Positions 34,165 through 61,373 are shown, numbered from the stretch's first letter. The stretch: 64,000 nt of DNA from an uncultured Gemmatimonadales bacterium (GCA_963779755.1 CAVZZO010000003.1:1120001-1184000); one strand, 5' to 3'. Notes: generated by a model from the sequence alone, not told the origin. Program-made: numbers and translations.

Positions 34165-34400
34165 CGGTTTCGGCCCCCTCGCTGCGCTCGGGGTGACAGC
34201 CTCTGCCTGCCTGTGGTTCCGGTCGCTGCGCTCCCTCAGGGTGACACGGGGCCTTTGGGGATTCGATTGTCACCCTGAGCGAAGCGAAGGGGGCGAAGTC
34301 CTCCCCGGATTTCGGTCCCTTCGGTGGCTGCGCTCAGGGTGACAGCGGGTGCCGGGTTCCCCCTCTCCACGCAGTGGAGAGGGGGTCAGGGGGTGAGGTC
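34165..34400. repeat. Cluster of REP-like palindromic elements (TGTCACCCTGAG...CTCAGGGTGACA family plus a CCCCTCTCC...GGAGAGGGG hairpin)
   Basis: Full element at 34268-34344, two half elements upstream, hairpin at ~34359-34385. Confidence 0.8.
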
Positions 34401-44546: not shown

Positions 44547-44561
44547 GGATGCCAAGCCAGG

Positions 44562-44642
44562 TGTCACCCTGAGGGAGCGCAGCGACCGAAGGGGCCGAAA
44601 CCCGAGGAAGGCTTCGGCCCCTTCGCTCCGCTCAGGGTGACA
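44562..44642. repeat. REP-like palindromic element (near-identical to 58925-59005)
   Basis: TGTCACCCTGAG...GAAGGGGCCGAA...TTCGGCCCCTTCG...CTCAGGGTGACA. Confidence 0.85.
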
Positions 44643-44728
44643 ATCGCAACGTCCCGGTCCCCAGTCTCAGTCCTCTGCCCTTTCCCGCCCTTTCCCTTTT
44701 CCGGTTTTTCGCCCTTCTTTCCGCAGTC

Positions 44729-53165: not shown

Positions 53166-55331
53166 TCAGGGTTGCCTTGGCCCCGGGTTGAAGGGCTGGT
53201 TCTGGCCGGCGCCGGGCGCGAACGGGTTGTGGATGGGACAGAACTCGGTGGGCCCGGTGCCCGGAATGAAGGACTCGACATAGCGGTCCTCCCTGGGGCA
53301 GAACGGGGTGTAGCGGTAGCCGGTGGACTTGTCGATGGTATCGAAGGTGAGCCCGTCGGGCCGGGACCATTCCTGCGGCACCGGCCGCCGCTCGTAGATC
53401 TCCTTCATCATGGCCGTCCAGGCCGGCGCGGCCAGCCGCCCGCCCTGGGCATCGGGCATGATCTTCTCCGGCTGGTCCATGCCCATCCAGACGCCGGTGA
53501 CCAGATCGGGCGTGAAGCCGATGAACCACACGTCGAAGTTGTCGTTGGTGGTGCCGGTCTTGCCGCCGGCCGGAATGGTCCAGCCCGAGCCGGTGGTGGC
53601 CGAGTAGGCGGTGCCCCGGCGCACCACGTCGCGCAGCACGTCGGTAATGAGCCAGGCCTGTTCCTGGTCCATGACCCGTTCGGAGTGCTCCTGCGGCTGC
53701 CAGACGATATTGCCGTCCTTGTCTTCCACCCGCAGGATGCCGACAGGCGCCGTGCGGACGCCCTGGGTGGCGAACGGCGTATAGGCCGAGATCAGCTCCA
53801 GCGGCTGCAGCGCGGCGGACCCGATGTAGATCGACGGGAAGGGCGGAATCCTGGTGGTGATGCCGAAGCGGGTGGCTTCGCTGATCACCGCCTCCGGCCC
53901 CAGCTCCATCCCCAGCCGCACCGCCACCGTGTTGCGGGATCGGTAGAGCGCCTCGCGCAGCGTCATGGGGCCGTCGAACTTGCTGTCGTAGTTCTGCGGC
54001 TCCCAGGGCGCCTCGGTCGTGTCCGCCGCGGGGACGCTGAGGGGCTCGTCCACGATAATCTTCGACAGCGGGTAGCCGGCGCGGATGGCGGCGGAATAGA
54101 CGAACGGCTTGAAGGTGGAGCCGGCCTGCCGCCGGGCCTGGATCGCGCGGTTGAACTTGTTGTCGTTGAAGTCGCGCCCGCCCACCATGGCGAGGATGTG
54201 GCCGGTCTTCGCCTCGAGCGTGACCGCCACTCCCTGCAGGTAGGGCGAATTCACCGGCCCCTCCTCGCGCCCCGATTCTTCCTTCTTCTGCAGATACTCG
54301 GCGTAGGTGATCCGGTGATACGGCCCGTACTGGCCGTGCTCGATCTTGTCCAGCTGTTCCGCCAGAGCGCGCTCGTCGGCCTGCTGCACGTCCAGGTCCA
54401 GCGTGGTGTAGATGCGGTAGCCTTCGCGGTAGATCTCCGGCCCGAACCGCCCTACCAGCTGCTGGCGCACGAATTCAACGAAATAGGGCGCGATGTCGCT
54501 GTAGTCGCTGCGGGAGGACAGCACCAGGGGATAGGCCTTCCAGCGCTCCGCCTCCTGGGGCGTGAGGTATCCGCTGTCGCGCAGCAGGTTCAGCACCACG
54601 TTCCGTCGCATGACCGCCCGGCGCGGATAGCGCCGGGGATTGTACAAGGTCGGCGCCTTGGGCAGCGCCGCCAGCATGGCGGCCTCGGCCACGTTCACGT
54701 CGCGCACCGACTTGCCGAAATACCGCTGCGACGCGGCCTCCACCCCGAAGGCGCCGTTCCCCAGCTCGATCTGGTTGAGGTAGAGCTCGAGGATGCGGTC
54801 CTTGGAGTAGTTCTTCTCGATTTCGAACGCCACCTGCGCCTCGCGCAGCTTGCGGCTGATGGTGCGGTCGCGGCCGTTGATCTGGTCCTGGAACAGATTC
54901 CGGGCCAGCTGCATGGTGATGGTGCTGAAGCCCTGGGCGATCCGCAGGCTCAGCAGATTGGCCTTGACCGCTCCCAGCACCCGCCAGTAGTCCACCCCGT
55001 GGTGCCGGTAGAAGCGCTTGTCTTCGGTCACCACGAAAGCGGCCTTCACGGCCGGGGCCATCTGGGCCAGCGGCACGACCGTCCGGCGCTGATAGCCCAG
55101 CTCGGTAATAAGCCGGCCATCGGCGGCATAGACCTTGGACGCCTGCTGGGGATCGAACTCGCCCTGCTGCAAGCCGGCAATGGAGGGACACGCCTCGCCC
55201 GCGCAGACGCGGGTCCACGCGCCGAGGCCGAGCGACAGCCCGAACACGCCAAGCGCGAGCACGGCGATGAGCAGGGGATTGCGGATGCGGGGATTGTACC
55301 ACCAGGACAGCCGCGGAAACCGACGGGACAT
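53166..55331 (-). CDS. Class A penicillin-binding protein (PBP1A)
   Basis: EDKRFYRHHGVD, GFSTITMQLARN, RKLRE, GSTFKP (SxxK), SRN, KTGT; likely start 55331. Confidence 0.95.
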   Translation of the reverse strand: MSRRFPRLSWWYNPRIRNPLLIAVLALGVFGLSLGLGAWTRVCAGEACPSIAGLQQGEFDPQQASKVYAADGRLITELGYQRRTVVPLAQMAPAVKAAFVVTEDKRFYRHHGVDYWRVLGAVKANLLSLRIAQGFSTITMQLARNLFQDQINGRDRTISRKLREAQVAFEIEKNYSKDRILELYLNQIELGNGAFGVEAASQRYFGKSVRDVNVAEAAMLAALPKAPTLYNPRRYPRRAVMRRNVVLNLLRDSGYLTPQEAERWKAYPLVLSSRSDYSDIAPYFVEFVRQQLVGRFGPEIYREGYRIYTTLDLDVQQADERALAEQLDKIEHGQYGPYHRITYAEYLQKKEESGREEGPVNSPYLQGVAVTLEAKTGHILAMVGGRDFNDNKFNRAIQARRQAGSTFKPFVYSAAIRAGYPLSKIIVDEPLSVPAADTTEAPWEPQNYDSKFDGPMTLREALYRSRNTVAVRLGMELGPEAVISEATRFGITTRIPPFPSIYIGSAALQPLELISAYTPFATQGVRTAPVGILRVEDKDGNIVWQPQEHSERVMDQEQAWLITDVLRDVVRRGTAYSATTGSGWTIPAGGKTGTTNDNFDVWFIGFTPDLVTGVWMGMDQPEKIMPDAQGGRLAAPAWTAMMKEIYERRPVPQEWSRPDGLTFDTIDKSTGYRYTPFCPREDRYVESFIPGTGPTEFCPIHNPFAPGAGQNQPFNPGPRQP

Positions 55332-55384
55332 GTGAGGGAAAATAGAGGGTGGGACGGAAAGGCGGTAGGAGAGGAAAGAGGAAA

Positions 55385-56062
55385 GGACTGAGGACTGAGG
55401 ACTGGGGGCTGAGGGCTGAGTCCACCCGCAGCCGATGGCTCCCGGAGCGGGCGTAGGTGCCCCTGCACAGCGGGGAGCCAATCCCCTGTTAGCACCTCCA
55501 GGCCGCGGAGGGAGCCACGGCGAGGGTGGACGGTGGGCTACTGCAGGATGGGGAGGGACTGAGGGCTGAGGGCTGAGGGCTGAGGGCTGAGTCCACCCGA
55601 AGCCGATGGCTCCCGGAGCGGGCGTAGGTGCCCGTGCGCAGCAGGGAGCTAATCGCCTGTTAGCACCTCCAGGCCGCGGAGGGAGCCACGGCGAGGGTGG
55701 ACGATGGGCTACTGCAAGATGGGGAGGGTCTGAGGACTGAGGGCTGAGGACTGAGGGCTGAGTCCACCCGAAGCCGATGGCTCCCGGAGCGGGCGTAGGT
55801 GCCCGTGCGCAGCGGGGAGCTAATCGCCCTGTTAGCACCTCCAGGCCGCGGAGGGAGCCACGGCGAGGGTAGACGATGGGCTACTGCAAGATGGGGAGGG
55901 TCCGAGGACTGAGGGCTGAGGACTGAGGGCTGAGTCCACCCGAAGCCGATGGCTCCCGGAGCGGGCGTAGGTGCCCGTGCGCAGCGGGGAGCCAATCCCC
56001 TGTTAGCACCTCCAGGCCGCGGAGGGAGCCACGGCGAGGGTGGACGATGGACTGAGGACTGA
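55385..56062. repeat. Tandem array of four 112-113-nt structured elements (period 171-172 bp) with heptamer-containing linkers
   Basis: Cores at 55420-55531, 55591-55702, 55762-55874, 55934-56045. Confidence 0.95.
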
Positions 56063-56107
56063 GGGGGGCGGCGGGGTGGTATCGGTGCTGCCGGAGCCGG
56101 CACACAC

Positions 56108-58852
56108 TCAGTTCTCAGTCCTTTTCGCTTTCTCTCTCTTCTCTCCCCTCCATCCCACGACCACCTCCACCTCCCGCAGCGCCGACAGGGGCGATTCGAC
56201 GATCATGAGAAACCGCTGCCCGTCGGGGGTGACGTCGTAGCTGCGGGGGAACCAGACCGGGGGATAGGAGCCGGCAAAGAGGAAGGTCGGGTGCCCGGCC
56301 GTGCCGGTCGCCGGGTCCACCTCCAGCGCCATGAGGGAATCCCCGTTGCGATAGACCACCTCCCTGCCCTCCCGGGTCCAGAGCGGTTCCGCGCCACCGC
56401 CCGCTGAAAGCTGGACCCGCATTCGTCCGGGATCAGGAAAGGACTGGAGATACACCTCAAACCGGCCCGATTCGTCCGAATCGTAGACCAGCCACTTGCC
56501 GTTGGGCGAGAAATCGGGATGCCCCAGGTGCGGCCTCCCGGTCAGGTAGGTGCGAACGTCCGGGGGGCCGGCCAGCGAGGCGATGTCGATCTCCTGGGAG
56601 CTGGAATGATTGACGATGAACGCCAGCCGCTGGCCGTCGGGCGAAACCGACTGGACGAATTTGTCGTCCCGGCTGGTGACCACCGGCTGAGCAGGTGCAT
56701 CGCCCTCGGCGGCGTGGACGTAAATGTCGAAGGCCGGCTGTTCGGAGTTATAGAACAGGCCCTGGCCGTCGGCGGTCCACAACGGGCCGAACCCGGAATT
56801 CTGCTCGAATGTGGCACGGGTAAGGATGTCCCGTCCCGCATGGTAGACCCAGATGTCCCGCCGGGCGGGGCCCGACGCGACGCTGAAGGCAATCCTCCGG
56901 CCGTCGGCGGCGATGGCCGGGTTGGTGTAGAAGCCGGGCTGGAGCGGCACGGGCGCGGCCACCCCGGAGCGGGTGACCCAGAGCGGCCGGGTGTAGCTGT
57001 TGGCGGGATCGGCCGGGACGTAGGCCATCGCGCTGCCGGTCACGCTGTAGGCCGTCATCCCCGAACTGAGGTTCCCGCCCACATTCTGCACCACCGGGAG
57101 CGCGGGACCGGTGGCCCGGAGGTGGCGGACATCGAACGGCAGCGAAAACAGGGTCCCGTCCCTGGCATACATCAGCCGGCCTGACGCATAGCGGCCCATG
57201 ACGCCGGCCGGCACCAGAACCTGGCGCCGCCCGGTGGCGAGGTCCAGCACCTCGATCCGGGACTTGACCGCCGGGGTGACATAGTCGGTGAAGAGAACAT
57301 GTCGCCCATCGGGCAGGAGCTGGGGCCACCAATGCCCCAGTTCGCCGCTGGCGGTATCGGGCGCGGTCAGCATCTCGGCCTTCCCGCCTTCGGCGGACAC
57401 CCGCCAGAGGCCGCCCTGATAGGACGGCGTATAGATGATCCTGCCGTCCTCCCCCCAGGTGCCCCCGCCCCATTCGGCGTCGGCCAGCGTGGTGGGCGTG
57501 CCCCCGGTGACCGGCACTTTCACCAGCTTTCCGTTGGCGGAGAAGGCAATCCAGTCCCCGTCGGGCGAGAAGCACGGGCCGAGGGCACCGTCCGTGCCGG
57601 GAATCGCCGTCACCTCGAGCCGTCCCAGCTCACGCAGGAACAACTGCCGCCGCCCGGCATGGGTCACTTCCATCAGGAGCCGCGAGCCGTCGGGCGAGAG
57701 CAGCACGGTCGGCTCGCCGTCGAACAGCCGGTCCCCGGGCGGCAGCGTCACGGTGAACCGCACCGGCCCACCGGCGGCCCCCTGGTCTCCCCTCCGGAGG
57801 AGTACGAGCGCAAGCGCGAAGAGTGCGCCGGCAGCGACGAGGGCGAGCACGGCGATCGCGACCCGGCTCCGGATACCTGATCGCCGGGCGAGCTCGGCTG
57901 TCCGGGCCCGGCTGCCCCGGCCGCTGGTTTCCTCCCGGGCCGCCGGTGCGGGGCCCGCGAGCGCGGCGGCGAACTCGGCCGCGCTGGCAAAGCGGTCGGC
58001 CGGCAGCTTCTCCAGAGCCTTGCCCACCGCGGCTTCGACCTGCAGCGGGATGGTACGACGCTCCAGGGACAGGGGCCGCGGATCCTCCGTCATCACCCGC
58101 GCGGCGATGGCCTGAGCGGTGGGCCCGGTGAACGGCGGCTCGCCCGCCAGCATTTCGTAGAGCACGCAGCCCAGGGCATAGATGTCGGCCTTGGGGGTCA
58201 GGTCCCGCACGCCCATGGCCTGTTCCGGCGCCATGTAGGCCGGCGTGCCCAGGCTCAGCCCCGTCTCGGTGATCCGCGCGGCACCCTCCGAGCGGCTCGC
58301 CGCCAGCGCGATCCCGAAATCCGCCACCAGGGCATGGCCGCCGTAGAGCAGGATGTTCTCCGGCTTGATGTCGCGGTGGATCACCCCCTGGCCGTGGGCG
58401 TACTGCAGCGCGTCCGCCACCTCGGTGGCGATGCGGATCGCGTCCTCCACCGGCAGCTGCTGCTCCCGGGTGAGCCGGTCGCGCAGCGATTCGCCCTCGA
58501 CGAAAGGCATGACGTAATAGAGGAGGGCGGTCGGGCGGTCGGGCGGAAAGGCGGTCGGTGCCTCCGCACCCCGATGGACCTCCGCGTCTACCGGGACATC
58601 GATGCGCCCGCTGTCCAGCAGCGGCAGAATGTGGGGATGGTGCAGGTTGGCGGTGAGACGGATTTCCTTGAGAAACCGCTCGGAGCCCAGAATGGCCGCA
58701 AGGTCGGGCCGTAACACCTTGAGCGCCACCGGCCGCTCGTGCTTCAGGTCCTGCGCCAGGTAGACGGTCGCCATCCCCCCCGCGCCGAGTTCGCGCGTGA
58801 TGCCGTAACGGCCGGCCAGACCGGACTGGAGTTGTTCGGTGGAGATAAACAT
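56108..58852 (-). CDS. Hanks-type Ser/Thr protein kinase with TM and a TolB-like (PD40) beta-propeller
   Basis: LGAGGMATVY, VALK, HRDIKPEN, DFGIA, GTPAYMAPEQ; multiple (F/L)SPDG repeats. Confidence 0.95.
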   Translation of the reverse strand: MFISTEQLQSGLAGRYGITRELGAGGMATVYLAQDLKHERPVALKVLRPDLAAILGSERFLKEIRLTANLHHPHILPLLDSGRIDVPVDAEVHRGAEAPTAFPPDRPTALLYYVMPFVEGESLRDRLTREQQLPVEDAIRIATEVADALQYAHGQGVIHRDIKPENILLYGGHALVADFGIALAASRSEGAARITETGLSLGTPAYMAPEQAMGVRDLTPKADIYALGCVLYEMLAGEPPFTGPTAQAIAARVMTEDPRPLSLERRTIPLQVEAAVGKALEKLPADRFASAAEFAAALAGPAPAAREETSGRGSRARTAELARRSGIRSRVAIAVLALVAAGALFALALVLLRRGDQGAAGGPVRFTVTLPPGDRLFDGEPTVLLSPDGSRLLMEVTHAGRRQLFLRELGRLEVTAIPGTDGALGPCFSPDGDWIAFSANGKLVKVPVTGGTPTTLADAEWGGGTWGEDGRIIYTPSYQGGLWRVSAEGGKAEMLTAPDTASGELGHWWPQLLPDGRHVLFTDYVTPAVKSRIEVLDLATGRRQVLVPAGVMGRYASGRLMYARDGTLFSLPFDVRHLRATGPALPVVQNVGGNLSSGMTAYSVTGSAMAYVPADPANSYTRPLWVTRSGVAAPVPLQPGFYTNPAIAADGRRIAFSVASGPARRDIWVYHAGRDILTRATFEQNSGFGPLWTADGQGLFYNSEQPAFDIYVHAAEGDAPAQPVVTSRDDKFVQSVSPDGQRLAFIVNHSSSQEIDIASLAGPPDVRTYLTGRPHLGHPDFSPNGKWLVYDSDESGRFEVYLQSFPDPGRMRVQLSAGGGAEPLWTREGREVVYRNGDSLMALEVDPATGTAGHPTFLFAGSYPPVWFPRSYDVTPDGQRFLMIVESPLSALREVEVVVGWRGEKREKAKRTEN

Positions 58853-58924
58853 GGATTACTACAAGATAGGGGATAGCACTGGGGACCGGCGACTGGGGAC
58901 TGGGACTGGGGACGCCACGCTGCG

Positions 58925-59005
58925 TGTCACCCTGAGGGAGCGCAGCGACCGAAGGGGCCGAAAACCGAGGAGGGCTTCGGCCCCTTCGCTTCGCTCAGGG
59001 TGACA
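58925..59005. repeat. REP-like palindromic element
   Basis: Near-identical to 44562-44642. Confidence 0.85.
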
Positions 59006-59053
59006 ATCGCATCCCCTCAGTCCTCAGTCCGAGGACTGAGGGCTGAAAACTGA

Positions 59054-59213
59054 GTCCACCCGAAGCCGATGGCTCCCGGAGCGGGCGTAGGTGCCCGTGC
59101 GCAGCGGGGAGCTAATCGCCTGATAGCACCTCCAGGCCGCGGAGGGAGCCACGGCGAGGGTGGACGGTGGACTCCAATCGCCTGCCAGCACCTCCAGGCC
59201 GCGGAGGGAGTCG
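59054..59213. repeat. Fifth copy (59054-59165) plus a partial sixth copy of the 112-nt structured element
   Basis: Same sequence as the 55420-56045 cores; the half copy abuts the PBP stop codon. Confidence 0.92.
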
Positions 59214-61373
59214 CTACGGCTCCCTGGGCCCCACGAAGTCCACCGAGCGCAGCCGCAGGTTGGGCCCGTGCACCGGGCAATAGAAGATGGGCTGGGTGCC
59301 CGGCAGGAACGCCTCGGTATAGACCGAATCGCCCGGGCAGTCGGGGGTCGCCAGATAGCCGGTCGTCCGGTCAATGCTGGCGAAGGTGAGCCCGGAGGGG
59401 GCCGACCAGTCGGAGGCGGAGGCGGTGTCGCCCACCTGCCGCATCATGCTGGTCCAGACCGGCGCCGCCAGCCGGCCGCCCTGCGCGTTACCCATGATGC
59501 GCTGCGGCAGGTCCATGCCGATCCAGGTGCCCGTCACCAGAGTCGGGGTGAAGCCGACGAACCAGGCGTCCGCGAAGTCGTCGGTGGTGCCGGTCTTGCC
59601 CGCCGCCAGGCCGCGGAACCCGGCGCCCGTCACCGCGGAGTAGGCGGTGCCGCGGCGAACGACGTCCTGCATGGCGCTGCGGAGCAGCCAGGTTTCGGCG
59701 GGGGTCAGCACCCGGATGGTGTCCGGCTTCGCCTGATAGAGCACATGCCCGGCCCGGTCTTCCACCCGGGTGACGGCGTAGGGCACCGCCCGCACGCCGT
59801 CGGTGGCGAAGGCGGTATAGGCCGCCACCAGCTGCAGCGGCACCACGCTGGCCGAGCCGATGAAGATGCTGGGAAACGGCGGGATAGGCGTGCTGATGCC
59901 GAAATGCCGGGCTTCCTCCCGCACCACCGACGTGCCGACCTCCATGCCGATCCGCACCGCCACCAGGTTGACCGAGCGGTAGATCGCCTGGCGCACGGTG
60001 ACGGGATCGTCGCCCATTTCGCCGAAATTGTGCGGCGACCAGGGTTCGCTGTCGCCGGGGGCCGGCGCCACCGTGAGCGGCGAGTCGCTGACCAGGCGCG
60101 ACAGGGGGATGCCGCTGTGCACCGCCGCCGCGTAGACGAAGGGCTTGAAGGTGCTCCCCGCCTGGCGGCGCGCCTGGGTCACCCGGTTGAACTTGCTGTC
60201 CTCGAAGTCGCGGCCGCCCACCAGGGCGCGGATCCCGCCGGTCCGCGGGTCGATCGAAACCACCAGCCCCTGCAGATAGGACGTGGCACCGCCCGCCGCG
60301 GCGGCGGTGTCGTCGCGCTCGCGGATGGCGCGGTAGGATGCGCGGGGATACCGACCCAGCGCGCCCGACTCGATCCGCTCCAGCTGCTGCTCCAGCGACC
60401 GCTCGGCTGCCCGCTGGGCGGTGAGATCCAGGGTGGTGTAGATCCTGAGCCCGCCGCGGTAGAGGCGGTCGCCATATTGCGGCTCCAGTTGGCGGCGCAC
60501 GTGCTCCACGAAATAGGGCGCGATGTCGGCGTTCTCGGCCCGGTCGGTGAGCGAGAGGGGCGCGCGCCGCCACTCCCGCGCCTGGCCGGCGCTGAGGAAG
60601 CCGGCGTCGCGCATGAGGCCGAGCACCACGTTGCGCCGGGCCAGCGCGAGGCGGGGATGCCGGCGCGGGTTGTAGGTGTTGGGCGCCTTGGGCAGCGCCG
60701 CCAGCGTTGCCGCCTCGGCGGGATTGAGATCGGTGACCGGCTTCCCGAAGTAACGCCGCGCCGCCGCTTCCACGCCGAAGACCCGGTCGCCCAGCGGGAT
60801 CTGATTGAGATACAGTTCCAGGATCCGTTGCTTGGGATAGCGGCGCTCGATCTCCCAGGCCATCTGCATTTCGCGGATCTTGCGGGAGAGCGACCGGTCA
60901 TAGCCGTTGATATCATCGGGCCAGAGATTCCGGGCCAGCTGCATGGTGATGGTCGAGAACCCCTGCACCAGCCCGCCGGCGAACAGATCGGCCTTGACGG
61001 CGCCGAGCACCCGCAGGTAGTCCACCCCGTGGTGGCGGTAGAACCGCTTGTCCTCGGTAGCCACGAAGGCCTCGCGCACGGCGGGCGGGATCTGGTCCAG
61101 GGGCACCACCCGGCGCCATTCCGTGCCGTAGGTGGCGATGACGCGGCCGTTCCGGTCATAGACCTGGGACGACTCGTCCGGGCTCCAACCGGTCAGGCGG
61201 TCAAGCGAGGGACAGGCCCCGTGGCCGCAGGCGGCGTACCATCCGGCCAGCAGGGGGGCATAGATGAGGATCGCCGCCACCGCCGCCACCACCGCGATCC
61301 GGTCGAACCGGCGGCTGTGAGCCCACCAGGAGCGGAGGAAGGAGGGAATCGGGATGCGGCGCATGAGGGACAC
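59214..61373 (-). CDS. Class A penicillin-binding protein (PBP1A paralog)
   Basis: EDKRFYRHHGVD, GFSTITMQLARN, GSTFKP, SVN, KTGT. Confidence 0.95.
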   Translation of the reverse strand: MSLMRRIPIPSFLRSWWAHSRRFDRIAVVAAVAAILIYAPLLAGWYAACGHGACPSLDRLTGWSPDESSQVYDRNGRVIATYGTEWRRVVPLDQIPPAVREAFVATEDKRFYRHHGVDYLRVLGAVKADLFAGGLVQGFSTITMQLARNLWPDDINGYDRSLSRKIREMQMAWEIERRYPKQRILELYLNQIPLGDRVFGVEAAARRYFGKPVTDLNPAEAATLAALPKAPNTYNPRRHPRLALARRNVVLGLMRDAGFLSAGQAREWRRAPLSLTDRAENADIAPYFVEHVRRQLEPQYGDRLYRGGLRIYTTLDLTAQRAAERSLEQQLERIESGALGRYPRASYRAIRERDDTAAAAGGATSYLQGLVVSIDPRTGGIRALVGGRDFEDSKFNRVTQARRQAGSTFKPFVYAAAVHSGIPLSRLVSDSPLTVAPAPGDSEPWSPHNFGEMGDDPVTVRQAIYRSVNLVAVRIGMEVGTSVVREEARHFGISTPIPPFPSIFIGSASVVPLQLVAAYTAFATDGVRAVPYAVTRVEDRAGHVLYQAKPDTIRVLTPAETWLLRSAMQDVVRRGTAYSAVTGAGFRGLAAGKTGTTDDFADAWFVGFTPTLVTGTWIGMDLPQRIMGNAQGGRLAAPVWTSMMRQVGDTASASDWSAPSGLTFASIDRTTGYLATPDCPGDSVYTEAFLPGTQPIFYCPVHGPNLRLRSVDFVGPREP

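Follow-up and report, generated by a model that had tools for sequence, protein, structure and literature searches.

What is a 112-nt, rod-shaped sequence doing in four tandem copies, with one and a half further copies downstream, in the genome of an uncultured Gemmatimonadales bacterium (GCA_963779755.1)? The copies lie in a 64,000-nt stretch of DNA (the window; contig CAVZZO010000003.1, here C3, positions 1120001-1184000; window positions are counted from its first letter) of a 4.23-Mb assembly with 68.5% G+C in 4 contigs. A preliminary description had offered two headlines for them, a candidate new non-coding RNA or a mobile repeat, and the second proved the better one, as the element was found at 20 loci of its own genome among unrelated genes, was patchy in relatives and was absent from the orthologous gene ends of congeners at 2 of 2 sites. 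The reading that we develop here, and whose chances we put at about even, is that of an element resembling REPINs (repetitive extragenic palindromic [REP] doublets forming hairpins) and enterobacterial repetitive intergenic consensus (ERIC) elements, which is recognised by its structure and amplified into arrays by recombination between flanking heptamer microsatellites.

All of the copies originally claimed are present. The four tandem copies start at 55420, 55591, 55762 and 55934, with start-to-start distances of 171, 171 and 172 bp, and Tandem Repeats Finder reported a single array (55388-56050, period 171, 3.9 copies, 95% matches, score 1198), as well as heptamer runs in the leader and linkers. 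On the + strand, a leader microsatellite of GGACTGA/GGGCTGA heptamers (55384..55419; Tandem Repeats Finder row 55384-55420, period 7, 5.3 copies) joins copy 1 directly. Copy 1 (55420..55531; subfamily A; 107.3 bits with a covariance model), copy 2 (55591..55702) and copy 4 (55934..56045) are each 112 nt long, with copy 3 (55762..55874) being 113 nt long through one additional base in the tip and also having a G replaced by an A in its basal stem (GGGTAGAC); all four are on the + strand and were seen in the sequence and by the covariance model, copies 1, 3 and 4 also by nhmmer and copy 2 by BLAST. Linker 1 (55532..55590), linker 2 (55703..55761), which has the same composition, and linker 3 (55875..55933), all on the + strand, bore out the description of a conserved piece of ~30 nt (GGTGGGCTACTGCAGGATGGGGAGGG) followed by (CTGAGGR)n heptamers, both in the sequence and by Tandem Repeats Finder. 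The tail of the array (56046..56107, + strand) comprises two heptamers, a 41-nt fragment of a second repeat (56063-56103) and inverted heptamers that close a hairpin, and the area 56037-56167 gave weak palindrome-type Rfam matches on both strands. Copy 5 (59054..59165, + strand, 112 nt; identified by sequence, BLAST and fold) is 98% identical to copy 2 and is adjoined at its 5' side by inverted heptamers (CCTCAGT.. / ..ACTGAGG; 59017..59053, seen in the sequence, no strand assigned). It is followed by the half copy (59174..59211, + strand; nhmmer, BLAST and sequence), which comprises the tip and 3' half up to GGAGGGAG and corresponds to nhmmer model positions 58-98 and, at 94% identity, to BLAST query positions 60-94.

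On the + strand each copy is paired from one end to the other by the stems GTCCACCC/GGGTGGAC, GCCG/CGGC, TGGCTCCC/GGGAGCCA, GCGG/CCGC and AGGTGC/GCACCT, interrupted by GAA/GA and GGA/GGA internal loops; stems and loops had all been proposed, and all appear in the minimum free energy folds. Folding energies on this strand were -67.9 to -70.9 kcal/mol (z = -5.3 to -5.7; copy 1 -70.9 kcal/mol, z -5.25; copy 2 -67.9, z -5.32; copy 5 -70.9, z -5.69), with 0 of 200 shuffled sequences as stable, and folding of the - strand was weaker (-63.4 to -67.2 kcal/mol). The two small hairpins envisaged at the apex held only in part, being one among several alternatives, and the minimum free energy fold pairs the tip differently. 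The clustering of copy-to-copy differences in the tip can be seen in the alignment, and the element does have more architecture than a REP hairpin, as had been suggested. A kink-turn reading of the GAA/GA loop was rejected by inspection: kink-turn internal loops are 5x2 and this loop is 3x2.

The window copies are not a stand-alone locus, which the preliminary description had not recognised. Iterated nhmmer searches of the own genome returned 42 matches (39 near full length) at 20 intergenic loci, and the window units are subfamily A, a derived subfamily of this larger dispersed repeat, alongside subfamily B with a GGATGGGGATC tip and subfamily C with a TATGTGCC arm. The subfamilies differ by compensatory changes (GGCTCCC/GGGAGCC, GCCTCCC/GGGAGGC, GGGTCCC/GGGACCC, GCTTCCC/GGGAAGC, CCATCCC/GGGATGG), and the basal stem of B and C contains a tandem G-A/A-G pair (GCGAGCCC ... 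GGGCGAGC) at a position that is Watson-Crick paired in subfamily A and in one C copy. Near-identical copies occur at far-apart loci with unrelated genes around them. Direct runs of two to six matches are carried by nine loci besides the window array, and elsewhere the array period is 150, 164, 154, 152, 193 or 251, with different linkers. A coding reading, in which 171 bp would be 57 codons of a repeat protein, was rejected since one unit is 172 bp and the other arrays vary in period.

To follow the element beyond this genome we used two search models, R1 made from the own copies and R2 made with the weak full-length matches that R1 found in 4 of 60 relatives. In those matches the rod middle was common nearly letter for letter and the basal stems were wholly different, yet paired. 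Of 40 other genomes from the same taxonomic family, R2 showed 11 to carry the element (E up to 0.01), at 1-12 copies each. In a phylum sample searched under stricter filters than this 40-genome set, 16 of 53 same-family genomes were positive (one being unpublished G101, not otherwise used) compared to none of the 67 that represented 11 other families (0/67); ~70% of the family genomes in these two samples lack the element. A strict pattern of the conserved core, run against one genome each of 185,579 species, matched 37 stretches, 33 of them in records labelled Gemmatimonadota, Gemmatimonadales or Gemmatimonadaceae, all metagenome-assembled genomes (MAGs) and all confirmed by R2 (33/33); two of the other four had no R2 match and two had weak partial matches, and the pattern had 0 matches in a viral collection. 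The element was found only in one Gemmatimonadales family of soil bacteria. Presence also varies below the level of the genus: at two element-bearing gene ends of one species of genus g24, the element was absent in the three other species searched (2/2), and at one of the two gene ends the three orthologous sites bear ordinary hairpin-plus-T terminators. Insertion into existing terminators was considered and set aside, there being no T-tract past the basal stems and no alignment of the congeners' terminators with them.

Across genera the element is 100-125 nt long and shares the core YCCC-GNA-GCGCGC-GU-YRGU ... ACYR-CA-GCGCGC-GRA-GGGR. This consists of a 3x3 purine loop (GGA, GCA or GAA opposite GGA, GAA or GGC), a GCGCGC stem, GU opposite CA and a short YRGU/ACYR stem. 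Outside the core the tip is variable, many copies having GAGCGG ... TTGGGATC ... TGAGCGAAC, and both tip and basal stem vary between copies through compensatory substitutions that keep the pairing. The result is strong covariation among homologues, which the preliminary description had proposed to look for. In 45 relatives' copies (alignment A3), 95.1% of cells were paired and 24 of 26 pairs had changed on both sides, with a covariation score of 0.597 against 0.138 for shuffles (0/500 reached it) and at most 0.081 for slid partners; A3 was fitted to the model and therefore leans towards the structure. The 39 own copies, scored on a hand-written structure, had 90% of cells paired, 14 of 26 pairs changed on both sides and a score of 0.212, against 0.080 for shuffles (0/500 reached it) and at most 0.057 for slid partners.

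One strand, the sense strand, is favoured. Stem cells in relatives included 40 G-U against 14 A-C and 25 G-A against 0 C-U, and those in own copies 17 G-U against 15 A-C and 41 G-A against 9 C-U. With RNA parameters the sense strand was the more stable in 36/39 own and 37/43 relatives' copies, and with DNA parameters in 38/39 and 35/43, respectively; in a pattern-selected MAG set, which includes a few opposite-strand duplicates and two outliers, it was the more stable in 28/40. Stems are kept paired and loops are kept unpaired on one strand, and the shape is maintained by selection. This argues against a plain double-stranded DNA site, and it does not distinguish RNA from single-stranded DNA.

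At the window itself, the copies are antisense to both flanking genes, a point that the preliminary description had missed. The array lies upstream of the start of a class A penicillin-binding protein gene on the opposite strand (53166..55300, -, start codon not fixed; open reading frame [ORF] list, Transgly 7.6e-61, Transpeptidase 1.4e-35). A Ser/Thr kinase with a PD40 beta-propeller is encoded between the array and copy 5 (56108..58852, -; ORF list, Pfam Pkinase 6.3e-43, PD40). Copy 5 and the half copy are just beyond the stop codon of, and antisense to, a second class A penicillin-binding protein paralogue (59214..61373, -; ORF list and Pfam), with the half copy adjoining that stop codon. 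The region 53166-61373 is an arrangement in which two class A penicillin-binding protein paralogues flank the PD40 kinase, all on the - strand, with hairpin copies in both spacers. The 30-nt linker piece ATGGGCTACTGCAAGATGGGGA (55533-55560, 55704-55731, 55876-55903) resembles ATGGATTACTACAAGATAGGGGA at the kinase start codon (58852-58880), and judging from this resemblance the array unit may have been built from an element copy and a gene-start region.

Genome-wide, using gene calls based on G+C content at third codon positions (GC3), 14 of the 20 own loci were co-directional with their neighbours and sense, 2 (both window loci) co-directional and antisense, 2 convergent and 2 divergent. For the 55 relatives' copies with both neighbours called, the corresponding placements were 14 co-directional sense, 20 co-directional antisense, 18 convergent and 3 divergent. 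Divergent sites being few, the element keeps away from promoter regions and prefers the 3' ends of genes; in genomes other than its own, the direction of transcription makes no difference to it. The genes flanking the own copies are unrelated housekeeping genes, and Pfam scans of 76 own and 57 relatives' flanking proteins found no recurrent neighbour family. There is accordingly no steady place upstream of one gene class, as a riboswitch or leader would occupy. The flanks of 45 relatives' copies and the 20 own loci had no common promoter, T-tract, target duplication or terminal TA. Between 55200 and 59400 there were 0 sigma-70-like sites, and four terminator-like sites where shuffles predict 1.6; one of these is inside copy 5 on the - strand and none is in the array, whose linkers also lack any.

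What does accompany the element in its own genome is a set of microsatellites. A tandem 7-9-mer of at least 3 units was found within 100 nt at 16 of the 20 own loci, compared to 252 of 1314 other intergenic regions of at least 100 nt. The heptamers are always 5' of the element in a constant relative orientation, and whole linkers recur across contigs, e.g. in the arrays at C1:804 kb and C3:1025 kb. Those (GGRCTGA)n arrays that are not near the hairpin element show no gene-direction bias (6 sense versus 5 antisense). A fixed junction, GAGCGGRAAGCT, often closes (GGACTGA)n arrays and is followed by the hairpin element, a second repeat or a gene start; the junction was seen at 11 intergenic sites, e.g. 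C1:1532121, C1:1532289, C3:1349357, C3:1356971 and C3:1396763. A further heptamer run in the window, (ACTGGGG)n at 58878-58913, has the complement CCCCAGT, which we take to be the unit of the cyanobacterial STRR1 repeat.

The own copies are also oriented with respect to replication. Cumulative GC skew and the position of dnaA (C1:305,492) put the origin at ~305 kb on C1. The skew rises along C1 from ~300 kb and falls throughout C3, and the two contigs look like two replichores of one chromosome rather than two chromosomes. At 17 of 20 own loci the sense strand is the lagging strand. The G-rich strand of own-genome (GGRCTGA)n arrays of at least 3 units is likewise lagging in 26 of 34, and because the two biases match we ascribe that of the element to the surrounding microsatellites. 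A general replication-strand rule was rejected, as the 17/20 of the own genome is met by only 6/12 in the complete relative G035.

The element was then compared with known classes. Searching Rfam (Rfam 15), as had been recommended, gave 0 matches at gathering score in the whole window; at E up to 10, the region 55300-59300 matched only microRNA and snoRNA families, all far under their gathering scores (the best at 28.3 bits, E 0.11, where the gathering score is 97), and the 60 kb of 20 relatives' loci matched no family at E up to 1 beyond one chance-level mir-345 hit. CRISPR arrays have short direct repeats (~25-40 nt) with unique spacers of similar length; this is none, since the repeat is 112 nt long and the 'spacers' are near-identical to one another and made of heptamers. 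In integron attC sites the outer core sites R''/R' read RYYYAAC ... GTTRRRY and cassette ORFs lie between sites; the ends here are GTCCACCC ... GGGTGGAC or GCGAGCCC ... GGGCGAGC, with spacers of 42-144-nt simple repeats without ORFs. When IS200/IS605 ends or a TnpB guide RNA were considered, R2 with filters off gave only noise of ~10 bits at the IS605-like loci L031 and L032.

The closest likenesses are to dispersed extragenic palindromes. REP sequences, in the account given by PMC3733652, are 20-40 bp long with a GTAG or CGTC end tag and are located where neighbouring ORFs are co-directional or convergent, usually behind coding regions, with the CGTC families having 8-9-bp stems starting AT, 4-5-nt loops and a CCA tail. 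Our element shares that placement, and shares with REPs, bacterial interspersed mosaic elements (BIMEs) and REPINs, as these are portrayed in PMC3733652, PMC3116915 and PMC3337134, the dispersed extragenic palindrome, compensatory pairing and inverted doublets and clusters. The upkeep of a hairpin by compensatory substitution, a hallmark of REPINs mobilised by REP-associated tyrosine transposases (RAYTs), was seen in own copies and relatives alike. Our element differs in being one rod, 100-125 nt long, that has purine loops inside it and lacks an end tag (CGTC, CGTT and CGTA are confined to its interior, at the junction above the GCGCGC stem), and in having neither a RAYT flanked by the element nor co-occurrence with Y1 genes. 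ERIC, as set out in PMC2229807, is 127 bp long, gives a long stem-loop transcript with an orientation-dependent effect on mRNA stability in Yersinia, and has 7-bp terminal inverted repeats, TA termini and target duplication (Table 1 there). Like ERIC, also called intergenic repeat units (IRUs), as that source presents them, ours is an intergenic imperfect palindrome of ~100-130 bp forming one long stem-loop, present in both orientations and at species-variable copy number. Unlike ERIC as tabulated there, it shows no terminal repeats, TA ends or target duplication in its flanks. It also belongs to another phylum without sequence relation (the ERIC consensus itself was not compared), is conserved in the middle of the rod and forms direct tandem arrays with microsatellite linkers. 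Heptameric intergenic repeats are on record as TAACTGA in Beggiatoaceae and cyanobacteria and GGGNATC in Xanthomonas and Nostoc (in the descriptions of PMC4679880 and PMC4692102). Our linkers resemble the TAACTGA repeats described there in being noncoding tandem 7-mers (GGACTGA, GGGCTGA) with ACTGA in common, between aligned ORFs. The difference is that those descriptions treat microsatellites alone, whereas here microsatellites bracket and link a structured 112-nt element. The REP survey PMC3733652 has 0 occurrences of Gemmatimonadetes, literature searches on Gemmatimonad intergenic repeats, RAYTs and covarying RNA motifs turned up neither this element nor any Gemmatimonad repeat family, and 'Gemmatimonad' does not occur in the main text of a 2026 preprint on non-coding sequence space. 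The element is of a known kind, an extragenic structured palindrome; what is new is the family, its inside-out conservation and its microsatellite-borne arrays.

In the reading that we favour, the element would belong with REPINs and ERIC as a non-autonomous repeat and would be recognised through its structure, its conserved core serving as the target of a putative trans-acting factor. Copying by way of a single-stranded 'sense' form would take it to further intergenic sites, mostly behind the 3' ends of genes. In its own genome the element sits in heptamer and octamer microsatellites, and unequal and ectopic recombination between these would build the arrays, in which one 171-bp unit is composed of the 112-nt hairpin and a 59-nt linker; ectopic conversion between dispersed microsatellites could in turn move such composite units among loci. 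Any transcribed copy is predicted to form a very stable hairpin in the mRNA, and a putative effect on mRNA ends would be secondary. Several observations weigh against this reading. No mobilising enzyme was found: R2 with filters off saw no element near any of the three own Y1_Tnp genes (two in IS605-like units and one RAYT-like). The link to an HUH nuclease floated in the preliminary description was not supported, with 0/3 own and 0/5 relatives' Y1_Tnp genes bracketed by copies. One of the 5 relatives' Y1 genes, a degraded gene in G035, has the element nearby, at 64 nt and on one side only; Y1 genes occur in 8/11 element-bearing versus 15/29 element-free genomes of the 40 family genomes, and G034 has four copies of the element and no Y1 gene. 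Terminal inverted repeats of the type found in miniature inverted-repeat transposable elements (MITEs), target duplication and a conserved flank were not found either, and it is the middle of the hairpin that is conserved, rather than the ends as in REP or MITE termini. Filled and empty sites could not be aligned base by base, downstream synteny or sequence in g24 being too diverged, and so mobility is inferred from distribution alone. The association with microsatellites is weak outside the own genome (3/45 and 10/37 relatives' copies). The lagging-strand rule is followed by only 6 of 12 copies in G035 (dnaA at 2,008,295; the figure assumes a terminus opposite dnaA and thus symmetric replichores), and the orientation signals conflict, co-directional copies being 14 sense to 2 antisense in the own genome and 14 to 20 in relatives. 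Finally, the copies of any one relative's genome have diverged considerably and are still paired, so long-standing selection at each site would also fit, which points to a function for the host.

Such a host function is the substance of the rival that we take most seriously, though we judge it improbable on balance: a cis-acting RNA module, co-transcribed in 3' untranslated regions and intercistronic spacers, which would act as a barrier to 3' exonucleases or whose GNA/GRA-GCGCGC core would be bound or processed by a lineage-specific RNA-binding protein or RNase. The module would be akin to what has been proposed for ERIC in Yersinia, and would account for the strand-specific pairing and conserved purine loops, the sites near stop codons and between convergent genes with few divergent ones, the sense orientation at 14/16 own co-directional loci, the persistence of pairing in diverged copies of one genome and, in one species, the occupation of a site where congeners have canonical terminators. 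It sits badly with the indifferent orientation of co-directional copies in relatives (14 sense, 20 antisense), where the same strand is nonetheless structurally favoured, with the antisense position of both window loci, with the absence of the element from orthologous gene ends of congeners and from ~70% of the sampled family genomes, and with the lack of a T-tract after the hairpin. Independent transcription would explain why the favoured strand in relatives ignores the orientation of the neighbours, and a family of small RNAs, with arrays as small RNA or protein-sponge loci whose GGA motifs in loops and heptamers titrate a CsrA-like or other RNA-binding protein, could draw on the conserved loop sequences and on the multiplication of GGA-containing units in arrays. 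We think this unlikely, as copies have no conserved promoter or terminator (with 0 sigma-70-like sites in 55200-59400 and no consistent terminator at copy ends), flanks are unrelated between loci, GGA is held in tight 3x3 internal loops instead of hairpin loops and copy number ranges from 0 to ~40 among related genomes.

The remaining readings are at the level of DNA. A true REP/REPIN, with single-stranded hairpins cut and pasted at the replication fork by a Y1 HUH transposase (RAYT or IS200-type), is suggested by the long hairpin with compensatory changes, inverted pairs at several relatives' loci, the replication-strand bias of the own genome (17/20 loci), its three Y1_Tnp genes and the copy 64 nt downstream of the degraded Y1 gene in G035. 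Yet copies bracket none of the Y1 genes, a different two-hairpin repeat flanks the RAYT-like gene at C1:953128, and there is no Y1 co-occurrence. There is also no GTAG/CGTC tag, and stem and loop sizes are unlike those of the REP families characterised in PMC3733652. The structurally favoured strand is on the leading-strand template and not the lagging-strand template, and the bias is missing in G035 (6/12); we consider this explanation quite improbable. The palindromic form, GCGCGC centre and own-genome replication-orientation bias could also bring to mind a site in double-stranded or cruciform DNA at which a regulatory or chromosome-organising protein would bind. This is very unlikely, given that the conserved loops are non-complementary, with GGA on both arms of one strand making for an asymmetric duplex, that stem mismatches are strand-biased, and that compensatory change without conservation of stem sequence is unlike the needs of a sequence-specific duplex binder. 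That the array could be dispersed copies mis-assembled together is brought up by the 4 contigs of the genome, and we regard it as barely credible: point changes and one indel set the array copies apart (95% matches), other own loci carry direct runs of two to six copies with differing linkers and periods, and unique sequence flanks each array.

The fold is kept on one strand whatever the orientation of the neighbours, which is explained by neither the ERIC nor the REP model. A more speculative proposal, which we offer tentatively and think rather doubtful, is that an undescribed Gemmatimonadales protein docks on the rod core (CCC / GNA / GCGCGC / GU ... CA / GCGCGC / GRA / GGG). This might be a hairpin-recognising mobilisation enzyme unrelated to Y1/RAYT, which would make the element a new class of structure-templated mobile DNA, or an RNA-binding factor, in which case the element would be a new class of multi-copy structured RNA with the arrays of this genome as a sponge.

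Other repeats of this genome were encountered alongside the element. The second repeat, ~145 nt with the core GGCGCAGGCACCACCGAACC...GGTGGTATCGGTGCTGCC, had 12 BLAST matches, six near full length, and directly follows hairpin-element arrays at four loci. Its copies lie at C3:1349352-1349493, 1356966-1357109, 1359692-1359837, 1666861-1667019 and 1668318-1668460 and at C1:1287999-1288122 and 1442025-1442152, and the fragment in the tail of the window array (C3:1176063-1176103) is 95% identical. A third hairpin repeat of ~85-90 nt (GTCACCCTGAGGGAGCGCAGCGACCGAAGGGGCCGAA ... TTCGGCCCC ... CAGGGTGAC; fold -61.8 kcal/mol), at window 58924-59005, is more abundant, with >60 BLAST matches and tandem arrays of its own. 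Further copies are at window 34257-34344 and 44561-44648 and at C1:555533-556013, 647378-648284 and 678256-678941, with many short partial matches at C3:1430-1449 kb. The RAYT-like Y1 gene (C1:953128-953475) is bracketed by two direct copies of a ~55-nt two-hairpin unit (TCGGCTGAAGCCGA, CTTTTTCACTGAAGTGAAG; positions 1355-1411 and 1923-1977 of locus L033), which is unrelated to the 112-nt element.

Abundant in soil, the Gemmatimonadota have had hardly any non-coding elements described. The more than 100 copies from more than 30 genomes assembled here form a clean, covariation-rich alignment with a sharp core, which is enough for an entry as an RNA or repeat family and can be used as bait for the putative partner of the element. 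Should a partner protein or a route of mobilisation be found, the mechanism would be new; should it not, the element would be another lineage-specific extragenic palindrome. Microsatellites and a structured repeat evolving together, as they do here, may explain how BIME-type intergenic clusters arise without a transposase.

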